Positions 6,329 through 63,828 of a stretch of 64,000 nt of DNA are shown here, piece after piece; within the stretch, counting starts at the first letter, position 1, and each line of letters opens with the position of its first letter. The notes beneath the pieces are model-generated. The model was not told the DNA's origin, did not search any database, and was given only the letters and a program-made list of their open reading frames with translations. The translations under genes and the position numbers were made by a program. Origin of the DNA: Bacteroidetes bacterium UBA2475 (lineage in GTDB: Bacteria > Bacteroidota > Bacteroidia > B-17B0 > Aurantibacillaceae); contig DDPF01000010.1 of the NCBI GenBank assembly GCA_002342065.1, forward strand, positions 327,507 through 391,506, given 5' to 3'.

Positions 6329-6408
6329 TTGAAATAATTTTAAATTTTAGATTCTAAATTTTAAATGGTGAATTAAATTTATAATACAACATTTATAATT
6401 TAACATCC

Positions 6409-19459: not shown

Positions 19460-19525
19460 GTGCTAAAACTTTTAACTTAGATAACTCGTATATTTAAAAA
19501 AAATTATTTATTAAACATACAATCT

Positions 19526-20305
19526 ATGAGCAATTATCTTTCAATTCCGTTAATTTCCTGGGCAGTAGTCGCCGTTATCATGGTAATTATATGGTTCTGG
19601 GCCTTAAAGATCAAGAACAATGGCATTGTAGATATTTTTTGGGCATTTAACTTTACGGTTATTGCAGGTATTATCTGGTATTTAGCGGATGGCAATCCTG
19701 AAAGAAAGATTTTAGTTTGTGCACTGGCCGGTTTATGGAGTTTACGTTTAGGAATCTACTTATTGATCCGTGTTGGCGGCCATATAAAAGAAGAAGAAGG
19801 TCGCTACAAACAATTACGTTTAGAATGGAATGATGCAAAATTCTTTTTCTTCTTCCAGATGCAGGCTTTTTCAAATGTAATGTTAGCGCTTCCATTTTTT
19901 ATCATCGCTCTTAATCCAAATCCGGAAATATCCATCATCGAATACATTGGTGCGGGCTTATGGTTCTTATGCATTATTGGCGAAGGCATTTCTGACTGGC
20001 AACTACAATACTTTAAAAAACATAATACAGTAAAAGGAAAAGTTTGTGAGTTTGGTCTGTGGAATTATTCCCGTCACCCAAATTATTTTTTCCAATTTTC
20101 TTTATGGATCTCGGTTTTAATTTTTGCTTTACCTAGTCCTTACGGTTGGATCTCCGCGATCTGTCCTTTGTCCATCGGGTATTTATTATTTAAAGTAACA
20201 GGTATTCCAATGACGGAAGAACAGGCCGTTCGTAGCCGTGGCGAAGCATACAAAGAGTATCAACGCACAACAAGTGTTTTTGTACCCTGGTTTAAAAAGA
20301 AATAA
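19526..20305 (+). CDS. DUF1295 / steroid 5-alpha-reductase-like membrane protein
   Basis: 'VDIFW', 'WSLRLG', 'EEGRY', 'GLWNYSRHPNYF'. Confidence 0.88.
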   Translation: MSNYLSIPLISWAVVAVIMVIIWFWALKIKNNGIVDIFWAFNFTVIAGIIWYLADGNPERKILVCALAGLWSLRLGIYLLIRVGGHIKEEEGRYKQLRLEWNDAKFFFFFQMQAFSNVMLALPFFIIALNPNPEISIIEYIGAGLWFLCIIGEGISDWQLQYFKKHNTVKGKVCEFGLWNYSRHPNYFFQFSLWISVLIFALPSPYGWISAICPLSIGYLLFKVTGIPMTEEQAVRSRGEAYKEYQRTTSVFVPWFKKK

Positions 20306-20376
20306 GGAAAATGTAAAAGGAAAAATGGAAGATGTAATACTCTCCCTTTTCCATATTACCTTTTCCATTTTACATT
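20306..20376 (+). repeat. Inverted pair of degenerate heptamer tandem arms, no enclosed gene
   Basis: Left arm aaaatgt-aaaagga-aaaatgg-aagatgt; right arm ttttcca-tattacc-ttttcca-ttttaca. Confidence 0.75.
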
Positions 20377-20386
20377 AGTATAAATT

Positions 20387-21415
20387 ATGTTTTACAATAA
20401 ATTACTTGAAAAAGATAAACTTCCTGATTCTCTCATTCGCATTGGTATTCGCAAGTTATTAAAGCAGCGTTTACAAGATGAGAATAAAGGAAATACCGAA
20501 GCACAACAAGCACATTTAATGCAATTGATAGCTGAATTAAAAGCATCACCAATTGCAGTTAATACACAAGAAGCAAACGATCAACATTACGAAGTTCCAA
20601 CTCAATTCTATCAATACTGTTTAGGTAAACATTTAAAATACAGTAGCGGTTATTGGAAAGAAGGGGTTGCTGATATCGATACTTCCGAAAAAGACATGCT
20701 TGAACTAACCTGTCAACGGGCAGAATTAAAGGATGGGCAAGAGGTATTGGAATTAGGTTGCGGTTGGGGCTCTCTTTCATTATTTATGGCAGCTAAATTT
20801 CCTAAAAGTAATTTTACGGTTGTATCTAATTCCCGCACACAAAAAATTTATATCGACGATCAGGCAAAACAAAGAAACGTTAATAATTTAACTGTTATTA
20901 CTATAAACATTAACGATTTTGTTTTAGATAAAACCTTTGATCGTATTGTTTCGGTGGAGATGTTTGAGCACATGCGTAATTACCAAAAATTAATGCGTAA
21001 AGTAGCTACGCTTTTAAAACCCGAAGGAAAATTGTTCGTTCATATTTTTACACATAAAGAGTATGCGTATAAATTCGAAGTAAAAGATGAAAGCGATTGG
21101 ATGAGTAAATATTTTTTTACCGGCGGCATTATGCCAAGCGATGACCTTCTACTTTATTTTAACGAACATTTAAGTATCGAAAAGCACTGGCATGTGAGCG
21201 GTACTCATTATAGCAAGACATCTGAGGCCTGGCTTCAGAATATGGATAAACACAAAACAGAAATAATTCCTTTATTTGAGCAAACCTACGGCAAAGAAAA
21301 TGCGGTAAAATGGTGGGTATACTGGAGGATTTTTTATATGGCCTGCGCCGAATTATGGAACTTTAATAATGGCGAAGAATGGATAGTGAGTCACTATTTA
21401 TTTACCAAAAAATAA
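20387..21415 (+). CDS. Class I SAM-dependent methyltransferase, CMAS/cfa-related
   Basis: 'HYEVP', 'LKYSS', 'LELGCGWG', 'IVSVEMFEH', 'FFTGGIMPS'. Confidence 0.88.
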   Translation: MFYNKLLEKDKLPDSLIRIGIRKLLKQRLQDENKGNTEAQQAHLMQLIAELKASPIAVNTQEANDQHYEVPTQFYQYCLGKHLKYSSGYWKEGVADIDTSEKDMLELTCQRAELKDGQEVLELGCGWGSLSLFMAAKFPKSNFTVVSNSRTQKIYIDDQAKQRNVNNLTVITININDFVLDKTFDRIVSVEMFEHMRNYQKLMRKVATLLKPEGKLFVHIFTHKEYAYKFEVKDESDWMSKYFFTGGIMPSDDLLLYFNEHLSIEKHWHVSGTHYSKTSEAWLQNMDKHKTEIIPLFEQTYGKENAVKWWVYWRIFYMACAELWNFNNGEEWIVSHYLFTKK

Positions 21416-21419
21416 AACT

Positions 21420-22550
21420 ATGTGGCGTTTACTTGTTGCAGTTCTTCTTTTCCTTTTATCCTTAATGGTGTTCTTTAAGGCGCCAACTAATTTTTTATGG
21501 AGAGTATCAGTTGCAATTACAGAATTTCCGTACATCTTTATTCTTGCTTCGCTTTTATTTTTCTTTGTATGCTTAAAAGCCACTAAATACAAAACAGCAG
21601 TTGTAACTCTAAGTAGCATAACTACTTTAATATATATCCTTCCCATTATCCAGGTTTACATGCGTGGAAATAACTTAACTGAAGATCTCAAAAAAAAATT
21701 CCCCTTTAGAGAGAATGAACAACATCTACAACAGCCCTACTCCTTTTTAAAAATGTTTAGCAGTATTAAGGGTGAAGAGATTACACCACAAATTTTTGCA
21801 TACAAAAAATTACAAGAAAGGAACCTGAATATTGATCTTTACCCCTCACAATCAAACACTGTGTCTCCCTGTGTAATTGTTATCCACGGCGGTTCCTGGG
21901 CAGAAGGCGATAGCAAACAATTACCGGACCTGAACAGTTATTTAGCAAACAAAGGTTATCATGTGGTAGCTATCAATTACCGGTTAGCTCCAAAATATAA
22001 ATCACCTGCACCGGTTGAAGACCTTAGAGATGTAATAAACTACTTAACTGCTAATTCAGAAAAATTAAAGATCGATACATCCAACTTTGTTTTGCTTGGT
22101 CGTTCGGCGGGTGGACAAATTGCTTTATGTGCTGCTTATACTTATAACTTACCAAATATTAAAGGCGTAATTTCTTTTTATGCTCCGGCTGATATGGTTT
22201 GGGGCGCAAGAATAAAAAGTAATAAACTTGTTTTAAACACGGATAAGGTATTTACAGATTATTTAGGAGGACTAATAGATGAAGTCCCACAAAAATATCA
22301 AGAGGCAGGTGCAGTGGATCATGTAAACAAAAATTCACCTCCAACGTTAATTATTCATGGCGCACATGATGCCATGGTCGCATATGGACATAGTGAACGC
22401 CTGGATAAAAAATTAGAGGAGAATAATGTCCAACATTACTTCTTAAATTTACCCTGGGCCACACATGGCTGCGACTATAATATTAATGGGCCAAGTGGCC
22501 AAATAACAACTTTTACAATTGAACGTTTTTTAAACTCAGTAACAAATTAA
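21420..22550 (+). CDS. Membrane-anchored alpha/beta hydrolase (HSL-like esterase)
   Basis: N-terminal TM segments, 'HGGSW', nucleophile 'GRSAGG', 'HGAHD', 'HGCD'. Confidence 0.85.
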   Translation: MWRLLVAVLLFLLSLMVFFKAPTNFLWRVSVAITEFPYIFILASLLFFFVCLKATKYKTAVVTLSSITTLIYILPIIQVYMRGNNLTEDLKKKFPFRENEQHLQQPYSFLKMFSSIKGEEITPQIFAYKKLQERNLNIDLYPSQSNTVSPCVIVIHGGSWAEGDSKQLPDLNSYLANKGYHVVAINYRLAPKYKSPAPVEDLRDVINYLTANSEKLKIDTSNFVLLGRSAGGQIALCAAYTYNLPNIKGVISFYAPADMVWGARIKSNKLVLNTDKVFTDYLGGLIDEVPQKYQEAGAVDHVNKNSPPTLIIHGAHDAMVAYGHSERLDKKLEENNVQHYFLNLPWATHGCDYNINGPSGQITTFTIERFLNSVTN

Positions 22551-23797
22551 TGCAAACATTAGCTATCATAGGAACAGGAATTGCAGGCATGGGTTGCGGA
22601 CATTTGCTTCAAAAAAAATACAATATAACTTTGTTTGAACAGAACAATTATATTGGCGGACATACTAACACGTTTTCCACTGAAGAGGATGGCAATAAAG
22701 TTTTTATGGATACAGGTTTTATGGTCTTTAATTTTGAGACATATCCAAATCTTTGCAAATTATTTGATGAAATAAAAGCACCGATCAAAAAAACGGACAT
22801 GTCGTTTAGTGTGCAACACACTGCGAGCGGCCTTGAATACTGTGGTTCCGGACTGAATGGTTTATTTGCTCAACGTAAAAATATCTTTAGTATCGGTTAT
22901 ATTAAAATGCTAATAGAAATAACACGCTTTAATAAAATAAGTGTAGAAATTTTAGATGATCCGAAATATGAGAATCATTCTTTAGCACAATACATTAAAG
23001 AATTTAATTTTAGTGAAGAGATGCTTTGGAAATATTTAGTACCTATGAGCTCTGCAGTTTGGAGTACGCCAATGGATAAGATGTTAGATTTTCCAGCCGT
23101 TGCACTTATTCGATTTTTTAAGAACCATGGCTTTTTGGGATTGAATACGCAACACCAATGGTATACGTTAGAAAACGGGAGTCAATCTTATCGCGAGATC
23201 TTAATTAAGCCATTTAAAGACAAGATTCATATTAATAATGGTGCTGTAAAAGTTAGTCGTAATGCAAATGGAAAGGCCACTCTACATTTAAAAGATGGGA
23301 CTTCAAAAGAATTTGATAAAGTTATTTTTGCTTCGCACGCTGATGAAACTTTGAAAATATTAGACCAACCAACAGCAGAGGAAAAAAGATTATTGAGTCC
23401 ATTTAAATACCAAAAAAATATTGCCACGGTTCATACAGATGAATCAACTATGCCAAAAAACAAGAAAACATGGAGCAGTTGGAATTATAGGATAGAAGAA
23501 CGAAATGGAAAACAGGTTCCAACAACTATTTATTGGATGAACAGTTTACAAGGCGTTTCTAAAAAGAAAAATTATTTTGTTTCTATAAATGCCATTCCCG
23601 GAACTGTAGATAAGGCTAAGATATTAAAAGAAATAGATTACGAACACCCCTTATTTGATGTAGCGGCCATTAATGCGCAAAATGAATTACAAACATTAAA
23701 TGAAAGCGGACCTTTGTACTATTGCGGAAGTTACTTTAAATACGGCTTTCATGAAGATGCTTATGCCAGTGCGGTAGAACTGTGTAAACGAATGTAA
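22550..23797 (+). CDS. FAD-dependent oxidoreductase of the cfa/DUF1365 cluster (UfaD-like)
   Basis: 'IIGTGIAG', 'GGHTNT', 'DTGFMVFN..TYPN', 'YGFHEDA'. Confidence 0.88.
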   Translation: MQTLAIIGTGIAGMGCGHLLQKKYNITLFEQNNYIGGHTNTFSTEEDGNKVFMDTGFMVFNFETYPNLCKLFDEIKAPIKKTDMSFSVQHTASGLEYCGSGLNGLFAQRKNIFSIGYIKMLIEITRFNKISVEILDDPKYENHSLAQYIKEFNFSEEMLWKYLVPMSSAVWSTPMDKMLDFPAVALIRFFKNHGFLGLNTQHQWYTLENGSQSYREILIKPFKDKIHINNGAVKVSRNANGKATLHLKDGTSKEFDKVIFASHADETLKILDQPTAEEKRLLSPFKYQKNIATVHTDESTMPKNKKTWSSWNYRIEERNGKQVPTTIYWMNSLQGVSKKKNYFVSINAIPGTVDKAKILKEIDYEHPLFDVAAINAQNELQTLNESGPLYYCGSYFKYGFHEDAYASAVELCKRM

Positions 23798-23823
23798 AAT
23801 GTAAGATGGCAAAGGGAAAATGG
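23791..23823 (+). repeat. Left heptamer arm of the four-helix-bundle cassette
   Basis: aatgt-aaaatgt-aagatgg-caaaggg-aaaatgg, starting over the upstream gene's stop codon. Confidence 0.7.
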
Positions 23824-23844
23824 AGTGAATTAAAACAATAGAAA

Positions 23845-24207
23845 ATGAATGATAGAACTCAACAATTATTAGATAGAACATTTGATTTCGGAGTAAATAT
23901 TCTTAAATTTTTACGAAAGCTTCCAGATGATCATATTTATAGAATACCGAAAGTACAGGTTGGCAGGTCTTCCATTTCGATTGGTGCAAATTATGAAGAA
24001 GCTCAGGGTGCAGTATCAAAAAGAGATTTTTCTAATAAAATTGGCATTAGCTATAAAGAAGCCCGTGAAAGTCTTTATTGGTTAAGAGTTTTACAAAAAT
24101 TATATGAAGAAGAGAAATATCAAAAAGAGTTTGAAATATTTTTAAAAGAATCCCAAGAGCTAAAAAATATTTTTGCTGCTATTAAAAAATCGTCCAAAGA
24201 AAGCTAA
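23845..24207 (+). CDS. Four helix bundle protein (23S rRNA IVS-protein / TIGR02436-like family)
   Basis: 120 aa; 'QVGRSSISIGANYEEAQ', 'SKRDFSNKIGISYKEARESLYWL'. Confidence 0.9.
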   Translation: MNDRTQQLLDRTFDFGVNILKFLRKLPDDHIYRIPKVQVGRSSISIGANYEEAQGAVSKRDFSNKIGISYKEARESLYWLRVLQKLYEEEKYQKEFEIFLKESQELKNIFAAIKKSSKES

Positions 24208-24210
24208 TGA

Positions 24211-24247
24211 ACTTTACATTTTCCATATTACCTTTTACATTTTCCAT
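24211..24247 (+). repeat. Right heptamer arm of the four-helix-bundle cassette
   Basis: ctttaca-ttttcca-tattacc-ttttaca-ttttcca; inverse complement of the left-arm unit. Confidence 0.75.
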
Positions 24248-24250
24248 AAC

Positions 24251-25048
24251 ATGAACTCCTGTCTATATAAAGCCACAGTAATGCATAATCGCTTGAAACC
24301 TACTTCTCACCGGTTTCATTACAATGTGTTTATGTTTTATATTGACCTGGATGAAATAGCGCATTTAAAAAAGAAACTCCTCCTCTTCAGTCATAATAGA
24401 TTTAATTTTTTTAGTTTCAGAGATAATGAGCATTTGCAATTGCCAATTGAAAATCCTGATAAAAGCAAAACAACAAAACAGCATATCTTAGACTATCTTC
24501 AAAAAAATAACGTTACAACTGCTCCGGCAAAAATAATGTTGCTTACCAATTTAAATGTGCTTGGTTATAATTTTAATCCGGTTTCTTTTTATTATTGTTT
24601 TGACGAAAAAGATCAAGCCATTTGTTGCATTGCCGAAGTTGGAAATACTTTCAGGGAAATGAAACCCTTTCTTTTAACTAAAGAGAATTTAAGAGATAAT
24701 ACATTTCATTTAAATACCGCCAAGTACTTTTACGTGTCTCCTTTTATAGACCACGATGCTAATTTTGATTTTAACCTTGTAATTCCAACCGAAAAACTCA
24801 ATAATAAGATAGATACTTATAAAGATGGAGAGCGTATTTTTATAAGCACTTTAACCGGGGTTAAAAAACCAATAAATAACCGGAATTTATTTTGGTACAG
24901 CATCCGTTTTCCCTTTATTACCCTCAAAATTATTACTTTAATACACTGGAACGCCCTGAAACTCTGGCTAAAAAAGATACCATATCACAAAAAAGACGAA
25001 AACCCACATCTGCAAAAGGATGTTTTTCGTAAGTATAAAAACGATTAA
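24251..25048 (+). CDS. DUF1365 family protein (UfaO-like)
   Basis: 'HNRLKP..HRFHY', 'LGYNFNPVSFYYC', 'EVGNTF', 'KYFYVSPF', 'IHWNALKLWLK'. ATG at 24251; the track's longer start runs through the repeat arm. Confidence 0.88.
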   Translation: MNSCLYKATVMHNRLKPTSHRFHYNVFMFYIDLDEIAHLKKKLLLFSHNRFNFFSFRDNEHLQLPIENPDKSKTTKQHILDYLQKNNVTTAPAKIMLLTNLNVLGYNFNPVSFYYCFDEKDQAICCIAEVGNTFREMKPFLLTKENLRDNTFHLNTAKYFYVSPFIDHDANFDFNLVIPTEKLNNKIDTYKDGERIFISTLTGVKKPINNRNLFWYSIRFPFITLKIITLIHWNALKLWLKKIPYHKKDENPHLQKDVFRKYKND

Positions 25049-25117
25049 AAATGTAAGGATTAGACAAAAAATTCGTCTATTTTTAGGTTAATATTCTTAA
25101 ATTCGTGATTAAGATAA

Positions 25118-26356
25118 ATGTCAACAGTAACCACCATAGCAACAAAACAGGGCTTTTATGAGAAAGTGATCTTAGATCTGCTTTCTAAAATGCAATTGGG
25201 TACGCTTAACATAACCTTACCAAATGGCCAGTTAATTAAGATCGGTAATGGGGGAAGTAATATTGAAGCAAATATAGAAATCACTGATCCCAATTTTTTT
25301 AAGCGTTGTGTTTTATACGGTGATATTGGTTTTGGAGAATCGTACACTGACGGAGAATGGGATACTGATAATATTACCAATGTTATAAAATGGTTCCTGC
25401 TTAATGTAGATAACGCTCCTACCGCATCTGGAAGTACAACAAAAAGTCTTGCATTAAATCTTTTTAAAATAGCAAACAAGCTATCTCATTTAAAAAGAAG
25501 CAATAGTGTTAGTGGTTCAAGAAAAAATATATCAGCGCATTACGACCTCAACAACGAATTTTTTGCGCTTTTTTTAGATGAGACCATGACCTACTCTTCT
25601 GCCTATTTTAAAAAAGAAGGCATGACCTTAAAAGAAGCACAATTAGCAAAGTATGATCGTTTATGTAAGCAATTAAATTTAAAAGCAAGTGATCATGTGT
25701 TAGAAATTGGGAGCGGCTGGGGCGGCAATGCTATTTATATTGCCCAAAACTATAATTGCAAAGTTACAACCGTTACTATTTCTCAAGAGCAATACAAATT
25801 GGCAAAAGAGCGCGTTGAAAAAGAGAACTTAACAGATAAAATTACAGTAGTACTAAAAGATTACCGTTTATTGGAAGGTAAATTTGACAAGATAATTTCT
25901 ATTGAAATGCTGGAAGCGGTTGGTGCAGAATTTTACAATATTTATTTTAAAAAATGCAGTGATCTTTTAAAGAAAGATGGCATTTTTGCGATACAGGTTA
26001 TTACCTGTCCTGACTCTCGTTTTGAGAGCTTAAAAAATGGTGTTGACTGGATACAAAAACATATTTTCCCCGGCTCTTTATTGCCCTCGGTAGCTGCAAT
26101 AAACAAGTCTGTTAACGAATCCTGCGACCTTACTTTGGTAGACCTAAAAGATATTGGATTAGATTACGCACACACGTTAAAGATCTGGCACCAGGAATTC
26201 AATAAAAATATTGATAAAGTTAAAGCGTTAAATTTTGACGATTATTTTATCCGCAAATGGAATTATTATTTGTGTTACTGCGAAGCCGCTTTTGCCATGC
26301 GCAATATTAACGTAATGCAGTTGGTTTATACAAGACCGAATAATACAGGAAGATAA
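25118..26356 (+). CDS. cfa: Cyclopropane-fatty-acyl-phospholipid synthase family methyltransferase (UfaM-like)
   Basis: 'GFGESY', 'NISAHYDLNNEFF', 'MTYSSA', 'LEIGSGWG', 'SIEMLEAVG', 'KHIFPG'. Confidence 0.9.
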   Translation: MSTVTTIATKQGFYEKVILDLLSKMQLGTLNITLPNGQLIKIGNGGSNIEANIEITDPNFFKRCVLYGDIGFGESYTDGEWDTDNITNVIKWFLLNVDNAPTASGSTTKSLALNLFKIANKLSHLKRSNSVSGSRKNISAHYDLNNEFFALFLDETMTYSSAYFKKEGMTLKEAQLAKYDRLCKQLNLKASDHVLEIGSGWGGNAIYIAQNYNCKVTTVTISQEQYKLAKERVEKENLTDKITVVLKDYRLLEGKFDKIISIEMLEAVGAEFYNIYFKKCSDLLKKDGIFAIQVITCPDSRFESLKNGVDWIQKHIFPGSLLPSVAAINKSVNESCDLTLVDLKDIGLDYAHTLKIWHQEFNKNIDKVKALNFDDYFIRKWNYYLCYCEAAFAMRNINVMQLVYTRPNNTGR

Positions 26357-26377
26357 TGATCTATTAACTTTTCCCTA

Positions 26378-27721
26378 TTAACTATTTACTTTCTTCTCTT
26401 TAAATCTCATAAAAATAATTGCTGCTAAAAAGCAAAGCACAAAACCTAAAATTCCGTTCAGGCGAATACCAAAATCATTTCCTACATCTTTGCCATAAAT
26501 TAAGAACATAGCAAATAAAGCAATACCAAAGGTTTGGGCGATCTTTACAAAAAAGTAACGCACTGCAAAATAAATAGCTTCTTTATTCTCATTGGTCTCT
26601 TCTGTATCTTTTTCAATGATCTCGGCAAGAATAGCATTAGGCAATATATTTAACGACGCTAAAGGAATAGCCGCAAAAGCGATCAATGAATAGATCTGTA
26701 CTAAAGGATCAATTTCGGACTTCCCTAAAAAATAGATCCCTAAAAATATAGTAGATAATAGAGCCAAAGAAAAAACAACAATTATTTTCTTGCCAATTTT
26801 TTTTGCCAGGTAATTTATTACAGGGTAAAAGATAAACGACACCAGCACCATCATGATCATGAGTTTGTTACCAATGGTTTCGGGCAATTGTAATAAGACG
26901 GTTACAAAATACATTAAACCGGAAGTGATAATTGTAACCGCAATAAAATAAGAGAAATCGGCCACAATAAATAATTGAAAATTTTTGTTAGTTAGTGTTT
27001 GTCGTAATGCTTTTTTCATGGGCACTGCGCTTGGTTTGCTATCACAATATTTTCTTTCGTCGATAGCCAAAACTGTTACCAACATAAAAAGCGCAGCCAA
27101 CGCGGCCATTAAAACAATAGTTAATTGCAATGCGGAAATACGAGAAACAATACTTAAAGAATGTTGGAGAAGATCCGTTAAATTAAATGCGTTAGATGCT
27201 ATACCAATACCAAATACATAACCAACCGATTGCCAGGTGGCCAAGCGTACTTTATCTTCCGAGCCCGGTGCTAATTCCGGAAGCAACGCATTATAAGGAA
27301 TGATATATGTTGTAGACGAAACATAAAACCCGATCAACATAAAAACTAACCAAACAATATTTAACGTACTCTCTTCTTCACGCAATGGATAAAAAACAAG
27401 GCAACAAAAAATAAGCGAAGGAATAATTGCCAGCTTCATTATGGGAATTCTTCGTCCTTTAGGGTTTTTGCTTTGATCGCTGAACTGCGCGATGAATGGA
27501 TCGTAAACCGCATCTATCAATCTACCACTGGCAGTAACAATTGCAATAACATTAAAGATCCCAAAAATAGCAACCTGTGTTATTAAATTTGGAAGACCGC
27601 TGCTGGTTGGAGGAATGTATAGATATACAAGAATAACACTTATTAAATTGATCATAATGCTCCAACCCATCATACCAAAAGCATAAGCAATTTGTTTAAC
27701 GAGAGGAAGTTTTTGTGTCAA
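26378..27721 (-). CDS. MFS transporter, GPH / Na+-melibiose symporter-like
   Basis: About 12 TM segments; 'GRLIDAVYDP', 'GRRIP', 'PYNALLPEL'. Confidence 0.88.
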   Translation of the reverse strand: MTQKLPLVKQIAYAFGMMGWSIMINLISVILVYLYIPPTSSGLPNLITQVAIFGIFNVIAIVTASGRLIDAVYDPFIAQFSDQSKNPKGRRIPIMKLAIIPSLIFCCLVFYPLREEESTLNIVWLVFMLIGFYVSSTTYIIPYNALLPELAPGSEDKVRLATWQSVGYVFGIGIASNAFNLTDLLQHSLSIVSRISALQLTIVLMAALAALFMLVTVLAIDERKYCDSKPSAVPMKKALRQTLTNKNFQLFIVADFSYFIAVTIITSGLMYFVTVLLQLPETIGNKLMIMMVLVSFIFYPVINYLAKKIGKKIIVVFSLALLSTIFLGIYFLGKSEIDPLVQIYSLIAFAAIPLASLNILPNAILAEIIEKDTEETNENKEAIYFAVRYFFVKIAQTFGIALFAMFLIYGKDVGNDFGIRLNGILGFVLCFLAAIIFMRFKEKKVNS

Positions 27722-52590: not shown

Positions 52591-52598
52591 AGTTTATA

Positions 52599-52684
52599 AA
52601 TTAGTCAATTCGATAATGTGACGATTAGTCAATTAACGAAATATGTTTTTAATTATCTAAAACCAATAGTCTCATTGACTAATT
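52599..52684. repeat. Inverted octamer tandem arms between ugd and uxs
   Basis: ttagtcaa-ttcgataa-tgtgacga-ttagtcaa-ttaacgaa facing ttatctaa...ttgactaa. Confidence 0.7.
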
Positions 52685-54001: not shown

Positions 54002-54044
54002 ATTCTTTTATTTAATGGCATTTTCTTTTTGCTCCATTTTCTTT

Positions 54045-54080
54045 TTAATTATCAAATCGACTAATTATCTAATTGACTAA
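54045..54080. repeat. Octamer tandem arm at the degT 3' end
   Basis: ttaa-ttatcaaa-tcgactaa-ttatctaa-ttgactaa; overlaps the last codons of degT. Confidence 0.7.
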
Positions 54081-63465: not shown

Positions 63466-63828
63466 TTATTTTCCTATAGAAGCGAACCATTTCTGGAAGG
63501 CTTCACCCATTAAAGGCAAAGGCTTTTCTTCTCCATTGATAGCAGAAACCAGGCCCAGGATCCAAAAGATCAAAAGCGCTATAGATATTAATAAATTTGC
63601 ACCCCAGCCAATAAAAGGTATGAACATTAAAGGGATACGGATAACAATAGTAGAAATTGCCAATAGCATTAAGCCTAATGACTGACGAAGGTGATATCCA
63701 CCTATTGAGGTTTTATTGCTGCCATGCATTACCAGGGCAACTATCCAACCAATAAGGGTGATATAAGAGATAATGGCAATTGTTTTGCCTTGTTCTGCAT
63801 TTGCCTGAGGGGTATTTGTATTTTCCAT
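63466..63828 (-). CDS. DUF4870-like small membrane protein
   Basis: 'IAIISYITLIGWIVA', 'YHLRQSLGL', 'AINGEEKPLP'. Confidence 0.75.
   Translation of the reverse strand: MENTNTPQANAEQGKTIAIISYITLIGWIVALVMHGSNKTSIGGYHLRQSLGLMLLAISTIVIRIPLMFIPFIGWGANLLISIALLIFWILGLVSAINGEEKPLPLMGEAFQKWFASIGK

Follow-up and report, generated by a model that had tools for sequence, protein, structure and literature searches.

Intervening sequences (IVSs) of 23S rRNA that bear an open reading frame (ORF) occur in Coxiella burnetii (at helix 45), Leptospira, Xanthomonas and Brucella, and their origin and role have, to our knowledge, been unsettled for over 30 years. The proteins that they encode belong to a very large family of four-helix-bundle (4HB) "23S rRNA IVS proteins", for which we know of no function outside diversity-generating retroelements, where the accessory protein Avd is a pentamer that holds structured RNA and reverse transcriptase. 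In Coxiella the IVS comprises an S23p ORF, GACAGAT heptamers and a terminal stem of 28 bp, within which RNase III has been shown experimentally to cut; the family member 2gsc is a homopentamer (PMC4990558). Here we describe a unit of IVS type that lives in an ordinary operon: at 23791-24247 of a 64,000-nt stretch of the genome of Bacteroidetes bacterium UBA2475 (hereafter the window; positions 327507-391506 of contig C16, in a genome of 4.15 Mb and 34.8% GC), two inverted arms of heptamers enclose the gene of a 120-aa 4HB protein between two protein-coding genes. Our verdict is that this is an IVS-type hairpin cassette with sequence-specific arms, inherited and often lost.

Set beside the rRNA elements, the cassette shows each structural IVS feature that was tested save the defining one, residence in 23S rRNA. 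Like them, it carries an S23p/PF05635 ORF of the pentameric four-helix-bundle family, enclosed by terminal inverted repeats amounting to a stem of ~28-30 bp, and, as in the Coxiella element, tandem heptamers stand in the 5' arm just before the start codon (PMC4990558); the total size is ~430-460 nt in both. Unlike them, it lies between protein-coding genes of an mRNA operon and belongs to a dispersed family with ~18 gene-less hairpins, and strong purifying selection acts on its protein, in contrast to the decaying ORF of Coxiella. An earlier note on this DNA, made from the sequence alone, had proposed an "IVS-like cassette", a term that is right as a description of the architecture (terminal inverted arms, heptamer repeats, S23p/PF05635 ORF; PMC4990558), while its interpretation overall is partly supported.

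The enclosed gene is what the note had taken it for, a 120-aa 4HB ORF between genes for an FAD oxidoreductase and a DUF1365 protein. The sole Pfam match of this cargo protein is PF05635, "23S rRNA-intervening sequence protein" (54.7 bits, cut-off 33.8), the match to TIGR02436, "four helix bundle protein", scores 73 bits, and PDB entry 2rld is matched at E 9e-14. An AlphaFold model with 59 homologues as input (pLDDT 97) has four helices and comes closest in structure to 2rld and 2gsc of the S23 family, followed by Avd (4dwl, 8ub7) with TM scores of 0.6-0.8 at a sequence identity of ~10%; the relation to Avd that the note had named is thereby recovered at the level of the fold. Unlike a diversity-generating retroelement, the locus has no reverse transcriptase among the seven operon genes scanned (19526-26356), template and variable repeats not having been searched for, and it is because the neighbouring operon genes include no reverse transcriptase that we do not regard the cassette as such an element.

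The complementarity of the arms can be measured directly. A repeat search returns them as a 29-nt inverted repeat with 83% complementarity, in agreement with the note; the local inverted-repeat score of 33 (z = 7.5) was reached by none of 200 shuffles, and when all 483 nt of the RNA are folded, the terminal stem is present in the minimum free energy (MFE) structure and in the centroid alike. This score, with its shuffles, was used in place of the flank duplex energy, which was discarded as noisy, having a long tail in GC-rich controls and single-locus z values of only -2 to -3. Conservation adds a second line of evidence. Among four species the 4HB gene has proportions of nonsynonymous and synonymous differences (pN and pS) of 0.05-0.10 and 0.62-0.75, with dN/dS at 0.02-0.05 where dS is estimable; in the same species identity at third codon positions is down to 53-64%, and divergence is also seen in the leader and trailer linkers. 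The right-arm core is nevertheless invariant at 29 of 31 positions in all four, some of these without a pairing partner in the other arm, and the left arm is invariant at 31 of 32 aligned positions (G000, G016 and G012; genomes and loci are given here under our own handles). Since the arms are near-invariant even at unpaired positions, they are constrained as sequence and not merely as a helix. As far as sequence comparison goes, the protein and both arms are thus shown to be under strong purifying selection, and the conservation of the arms points to recognition of a sequence rather than of a generic stem.

The host junction across relatives likewise agrees with the note in that the two flanking genes are normally adjacent, and it reveals a diversity of occupants within one genus. 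Compiled from 32 congeneric genomes, the oxidoreductase|DUF1365 junction is found in four states. It is empty in 10, where the host genes abut or overlap (ATAATG or TAAATG); 6 have an orthologous 4HB cassette with the same arms, with decayed cargo in two of them (two fragments only in G068, an internal TGA in G067); 8 have a gene of the nuclease-fold family GxxExxY (TIGR04256, 109 bits) with TACGAAT/ATTCGTA arms, one copy of which (G036) aligns in two pieces, possibly through a frameshift; and 8 have a solo hairpin or short spacer, five of these being clear hairpins that differ from one another in their words (CACGAAA, CACGAAG, CACGGAG, CGCAAAG and, in G059, less regular units). Because the junction is empty in relatives the cassette is an insert, and it is shown to be an insert at a polymorphic junction; the comparison of orthologous junctions that the note had suggested yields variable occupancy, the gene not being fixed. 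A tree built from the two host proteins demands at least 13 changes of state and has carriers of 4HB and of GxxExxY intermingled inside one well-supported clade of 11 genomes; the two closest relatives (host proteins 90-94% identical) have GxxExxY at the junction.

Cargo identity roughly follows host divergence (91, 88, 83 and 75% for 4HB, 92 down to 73% for GxxExxY), and no orthologue of this 4HB gene at 75% identity or more was found away from this junction in 76 congeners. The cassette contains no transposase, and no target-site duplication is readable because the stop codon of the upstream gene belongs to heptamer 1 of the left arm. In close pairs with different occupants identity dips near the junction (83 versus 89, 81 versus 87, 89 versus 95), a pattern that would be suggestive of allele exchange there; gene ends evolve faster in same-state pairs too (85 versus 88), and G000 is not nearer the other 4HB carriers in this part. 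We conclude that the cassette has resided here for long, has often been lost or decayed, and has in some manner repeatedly given way to a GxxExxY cassette. In Pedobacter mendelii, which is of a different class, a 63%-identical 4HB gene occupies the corresponding junction of this operon, and the arrays on its two sides are made of the cassette's words (AAAATGG, GAGATGG / CCATTTTCCAT), which shows the cassette to have been long inherited at this junction, as far as a Pedobacter with the same words. There, ~11 AAAATGG/GAGATGG heptamers follow the oxidoreductase stop (L028:2275-2500), and the right flank (L028:2860-3095) holds three ~60-nt super-repeats containing CCATTATCCAT words. As to the solo occupants, orthologous hairpins of closely related genomes (L020 in G013, L116 in G082, L119 in G069, L124 in G059) differ between genomes in the word of every unit of both arms (CACGAAA, CACGAAG, CACGGAG), which looks like a concerted change of all units.

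The arm words recur in the genome without a gene. A blastn-short search with the right arm as query gives 19 same-word loci, two of them deep inside ORFs; blastn itself pairs both arms at only 3 of the 19, and nearly all are hairpins by eye, the solo elements measuring ~70 nt, each arm having 4-5 heptamers and the loop ~4-20 nt (read by eye). A scan for exact-word arrays was too strict, missing the cassette itself since its heptamers are degenerate, and an MFE hairpin census was too permissive for so AT-rich a genome, returning 430 intergenic hairpins, most of them meaningless. The segment 23791-24247 is the only gene-bearing member of at least 19 "period-7 hairpin elements" in the genome, built on a plan of two inverted ~33-nt arms with 4-5 degenerate heptamers each (the unit being AAAATGK in one arm and MCATTTT in its counterpart); here an S23p/Avd-family 4HB gene stands between the arms where the others have a short loop. 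Across the genus, hits of the motif TTACATTTTMCAT number 22, 27, 14, 14, 11 and 10 in the genomes that carry the 4HB orthologue and have a median of 2 elsewhere (p = 4e-5, uncorrected for phylogeny).

Five further sites of the window had been listed in the earlier note as colonised by the same element, and this holds for the one at 20306 alone. That hairpin is kept in G012 and G001, half of it remains in G005, and the closer relatives G009 and G016 have a 6-nt gap instead. The sites at 6334 and 52599 are weak intergenic hairpins of other words (6329-6408 and 52591-52678, z -1.85 and -1.7) and may be members of other word families, their words being of AAATTTT/TAAATGT type and of AATTAGTCAAT type; at 26362 and 54045 (26357-26377 and 54002-54068) no fold was obtained.

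In having a single-copy gene between inverted short repeats that are also dispersed as gene-less doublets, and in its mostly vertical inheritance, the cassette resembles REP/REPIN elements with their RAYT genes; unlike these, its cargo is a four-helix bundle, where RAYT is a Y1/HUH transposase, and its arms are arrays of a 7-nt unit, not the REP palindrome. A likeness also exists to the Ssn GIY-YIG nucleases with their NTS/SRM repeats, where a small gene is accompanied, and often surrounded, by a repeat of which many copies lie around other genes (PMC11893778), with the difference that the cargo has another fold and no GIY-YIG or nuclease motif, and that the repeat architecture is not the same.

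Arms around other 4HB genes, for which the note had proposed to look, are present at the genome's other two and at 56% of those sampled across phyla; two of the findings that the note would have counted against its idea, armless 4HB genes elsewhere and a gene fixed among relatives, were thus not obtained. Each of the three PF05635 genes of the genome lies between one purine-rich and one complementary arm (z = 7.5, 4.8 and 6.6), in words that differ from gene to gene; a 120-aa ORF at 63466-63828 of the window, considered as a further 4HB gene, was rejected, as it gave a weak DUF4870 match only. The four GxxExxY (PF13366) genes of the genome, all outside the window (C17:165176-165511, C13:7837-8166, C14:129093-129413 and C7:451031-451378), have their own flanking words, CGCTGAT, CCACATA (twice) and CACTAAG, and inverted arms are clear in three of them, the C7 copy having only a visible right arm. 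The CCACATA and CGCTGAT arms match gene-less hairpin families, which for CCACATA comprise dozens of hairpins, and the CACTAAG arm as query finds one other locus only.

The wider sample comprised 80 PF05635 loci from many phyla, 75 with full flanks, and inverted arms at z > 5 were found around 42 of these 75 genes (56%) versus 9 of 229 neighbour genes (3.9%); of the nine neighbours, four encode 4HB proteins in their turn and another four directly adjoin a cassette. The arms have a median length of 33.5 nt and lie ~14 nt from the ORF on each side. Among 50 strongly periodic arms the period is 7 in 43 and 8 in 7, with no other value, and shuffles give none. The purine-rich arm is the 5' one in 35 of 39 cassettes and in all 17 solo period-7 hairpins between co-directional genes of this genome, the corresponding split for ordinary hairpins being 98 to 115. 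A reading of this polarity as orientation relative to transcription was rejected, for an inverted repeat reads alike on both strands; being the same on both, the polarity therefore shows only that the words point towards the dyad. The cargo is co-oriented with both neighbours at 50 of 69 loci. Pairs of cassettes with similar words encode somewhat more similar proteins (49.0% versus 44.5% identical, p = 0.002), and the 4HB proteins of an Oscillospiraceae (L055) and a Flavobacterium (L063) locus are 63% identical, with the near-identical arm words AATTAGG and AATTATG, which suggests a joint transfer of gene and arms between phyla.

The explanation that we prefer, and to which we give about an even chance of being right as a whole, is that of an IVS-like hairpin cassette in an operon, with arms that loop out the cargo, a word-specific reader and largely vertical inheritance. 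In the transcript the arms would pair as an imperfect ~30-bp stem, which would juxtapose the upstream stop and the downstream start and loop out the cargo; by analogy with the rRNA intervening sequences RNase III probably cuts this stem, and cutting would free the cargo mRNA and let the operon put up with the insert. Specific recognition within the family would fall to the arrays of heptamers, and their likeliest reader may be the pentameric cargo protein itself, with ~five units per arm for five protomers; with such a reader it would be understandable that words, and sets of gene-less hairpins, differ from one cargo paralogue to the next. We infer that the cassette is a largely vertically inherited selfish or commensal unit, not an actively transposing one. 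Put in these terms, the vague idea of a "selfish element" becomes a set of concrete questions about the match of pentamer and five heptamers, the RNase III cut and translational coupling.

A number of observations weigh against this explanation. The stem is AU-rich and weak, and the fold energy of the whole cassette is no better than that of shuffles (z = +0.89), so that only the terminal stem is informative; the hairpin at 20306-20376 folds at a z of only -2.4. The arms pair almost equally well one heptamer off, a second register shifted by exactly 7 nt giving a 31-nt inverted repeat at 77%, and their complementarity may therefore merely reflect the same word in opposite orientations. Maintenance of a stem in the sense RNA was expected to leave more G:U than A:C pairs, whereas the arm alignments of 42 cassettes hold 1197 Watson-Crick pairs, 45 G:U, 45 A:C and 128 other mismatches, a count made without a positive control; nothing in it therefore favours pairing in sense RNA over a process at the level of DNA, and RNA-level pairing, and with it the RNA processing that the note had proposed, is not specifically supported by the mismatch pattern. 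Solo copies occur in every gene context, including between divergent and between convergent genes, and the cargo protein has no known catalytic motif. The word family is also rich in some genomes that lack the 4HB orthologue (30 hits in G046, 12 in G070, 10 each in G009 and G055), and it follows that the hairpins are not strictly dependent on this protein; in G046, which has the most hits, the one 4HB gene checked has arms of other words. Finally, no gain or transposition of the cassette was observed, and with orthologues at this junction only, the note's description of the element as "mobile" is not supported.

Several of these points bear on an alternative that we consider doubtful but to be taken seriously, namely a DNA-level repeat system of REP/RAYT or Ssn/NTS type, whose arrays the cargo protein or a host factor would recognise in the DNA itself, either double-stranded or folded into single-strand hairpins, the solo hairpins being non-autonomous copies that this machinery keeps uniform and pairing in mRNA being incidental. 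Equal numbers of G:U and A:C, together with conservation at unpaired positions, favour word recognition or an arm-equalising process in DNA over a generic double-stranded RNA stem, and the same alternative gains from the solo copies in every gene context, from words that point towards the dyad, from the near-universal period of 7, and from the occurrence in one genome of one gene-bearing copy and ~18 gene-less doublets with the same words, a relation that is repeated in two GxxExxY word families, ccacata and cgctgat; there is also the precedent of small nuclease genes framed by repeats that they cut (PMC11893778). This must be set against a 4HB protein without nuclease or recombinase motif, a word family that persists without the orthologue in several congeners, the lack of any movement seen, and homologous rRNA elements that act as RNA (PMC4990558). 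We find it improbable that the cassette is a host regulatory device, in which intercistronic hairpins would tune mRNA stability or translational coupling and the 4HB protein would be a host regulator encoded in one of them: the strong purifying selection on protein and arms, the tight stop-to-start placement and a 4HB subfamily long tied to the same operon (G022, Pedobacter) speak for such a device, but the junction is empty in 10 of the 32 congeners, the cargo has decayed in G068 and G067, an unrelated GxxExxY gene with other arms takes the same place, and the same kind of cassette occurs in unrelated operons and phyla. Far less credible still is that the arms are functionless low-complexity sequence, arisen by chance or slippage, or the gene a leftover Avd of a decayed diversity-generating retroelement. 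AT-rich sequence, simple-repeat arms and the Avd-like fold would suit this reading, against which the conservation and enrichment of the arms argue strongly, since they are near-invariant in four species despite saturated synonymous sites and occur far more often at 4HB genes than at neighbours; moreover, their score is unmatched by any shuffle, and the operon genes scanned include no reverse transcriptase.

Returning to the IVS-like cassette with a word-specific reader, one may extend it, tentatively and with the extension rather unlikely to hold in full, to the view that S23p/Avd-like 4HB and GxxExxY proteins are sequence-specific readers of two parallel sets of period-7 inverted arrays, each paralogue with its own word and hairpin family, and that 23S rRNA IVSs are the rRNA-resident minority of a large operon-junction class across bacteria, undescribed in the literature searched. 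No account of cassettes of this sort in operons, outside rRNA, was found by full-text searches. The main new points are the four-state junction within one genus and the conservation of the arms at the level of sequence, to which the constant 7-nt period across phyla and the pairing of a gene-bearing copy with ~18 gene-less hairpins are to be added; a class of this kind would account, in Bacteroidota as in other phyla, for many small genes labelled "hypothetical" and for odd repeats between genes.

The features of the locus are collected in the table. The host operon is a lipid-modification operon, and the two genes of it that the cassette separates are translationally coupled; its genes, all co-directional, run in the order DUF1295, CMAS-like methyltransferase, BD-FAE hydrolase, FAD/amine oxidoreductase, the 4HB gene, DUF1365 and CMAS. 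At the cassette no terminator was found and promoter-like sites were at chance level only, and a search of 19500-26500 matched no Rfam family; given the shared orientation, the lack of a terminator and a promoter signal not above chance, the cassette is most likely transcribed together with the operon. A frame check places the true start of the DUF1365 gene at ATG 24251, where the ORF list had a TTG.

Table. Coordinates in the window of the hairpin cassette, its host genes and the related gene-less hairpin
Feature	Position	Strand	Remarks
Gene-less hairpin of the cassette's word family, in the DUF1295/CMAS-like intergenic region	20306..20376	+	34-nt arm, 7-nt loop, 30-nt arm
Upstream host gene, FAD/amine oxidoreductase	22550..23797	+	Pfam PF01593, PF13450; last codon and TAA stop (23795-23797) inside heptamer 1 of the left arm
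Left arm, five degenerate heptamers AATGTAA AATGTAA GATGGCA AAGGGAA AATGGAG	23791..23825	+	Purine-rich, single C; starts in the last sense codon of the oxidoreductase
A-rich leader, left arm to cargo start codon	23826..23844	+	Diverged between species
Cargo gene, 120-aa 4HB protein of the S23p / 23S rRNA IVS protein / Avd-like family	23845..24207	+	
Right arm, five heptamers CTTTACA TTTTCCA TATTACC TTTTACA TTTTCCA, plus T	24212..24247	+	Pyrimidine-rich, no G; AAC (3 nt) separates its end from the DUF1365 ATG
Downstream host gene, DUF1365	24251..25048	+	PF07103, 243.8 bits; frame check

Some further cassettes in congeners differ in the length of their arms or in their location. In G005 (L012 / L024) the right arm of the GxxExxY cassette has grown to ~300 nt of ATTCGTA words, arranged in ~33-nt super-repeats, and a like expansion, to ~16 heptamers, has affected the left arm of the 4HB cassette in G001. 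G001 has another GxxExxY cassette, with CACAGAG/CTCTGTG arms (L022:1640-2400), and its flanking genes correspond to an adjacent pair upstream of the operon in the window's genome. Another subfamily of 4HB genes, with 39-48% identity to that of the window, occupies a second conserved junction in ten congeners (L127-L136), just before a gene starting MAEIV(R/K)MPKLSDTM in at least 8 of the 10 loci and just after a gene ending ...PNYPFII in 6 of them; its arm words vary by species (TAAATGT, AAAAATT, TAAAGAT, TTAGTGC).

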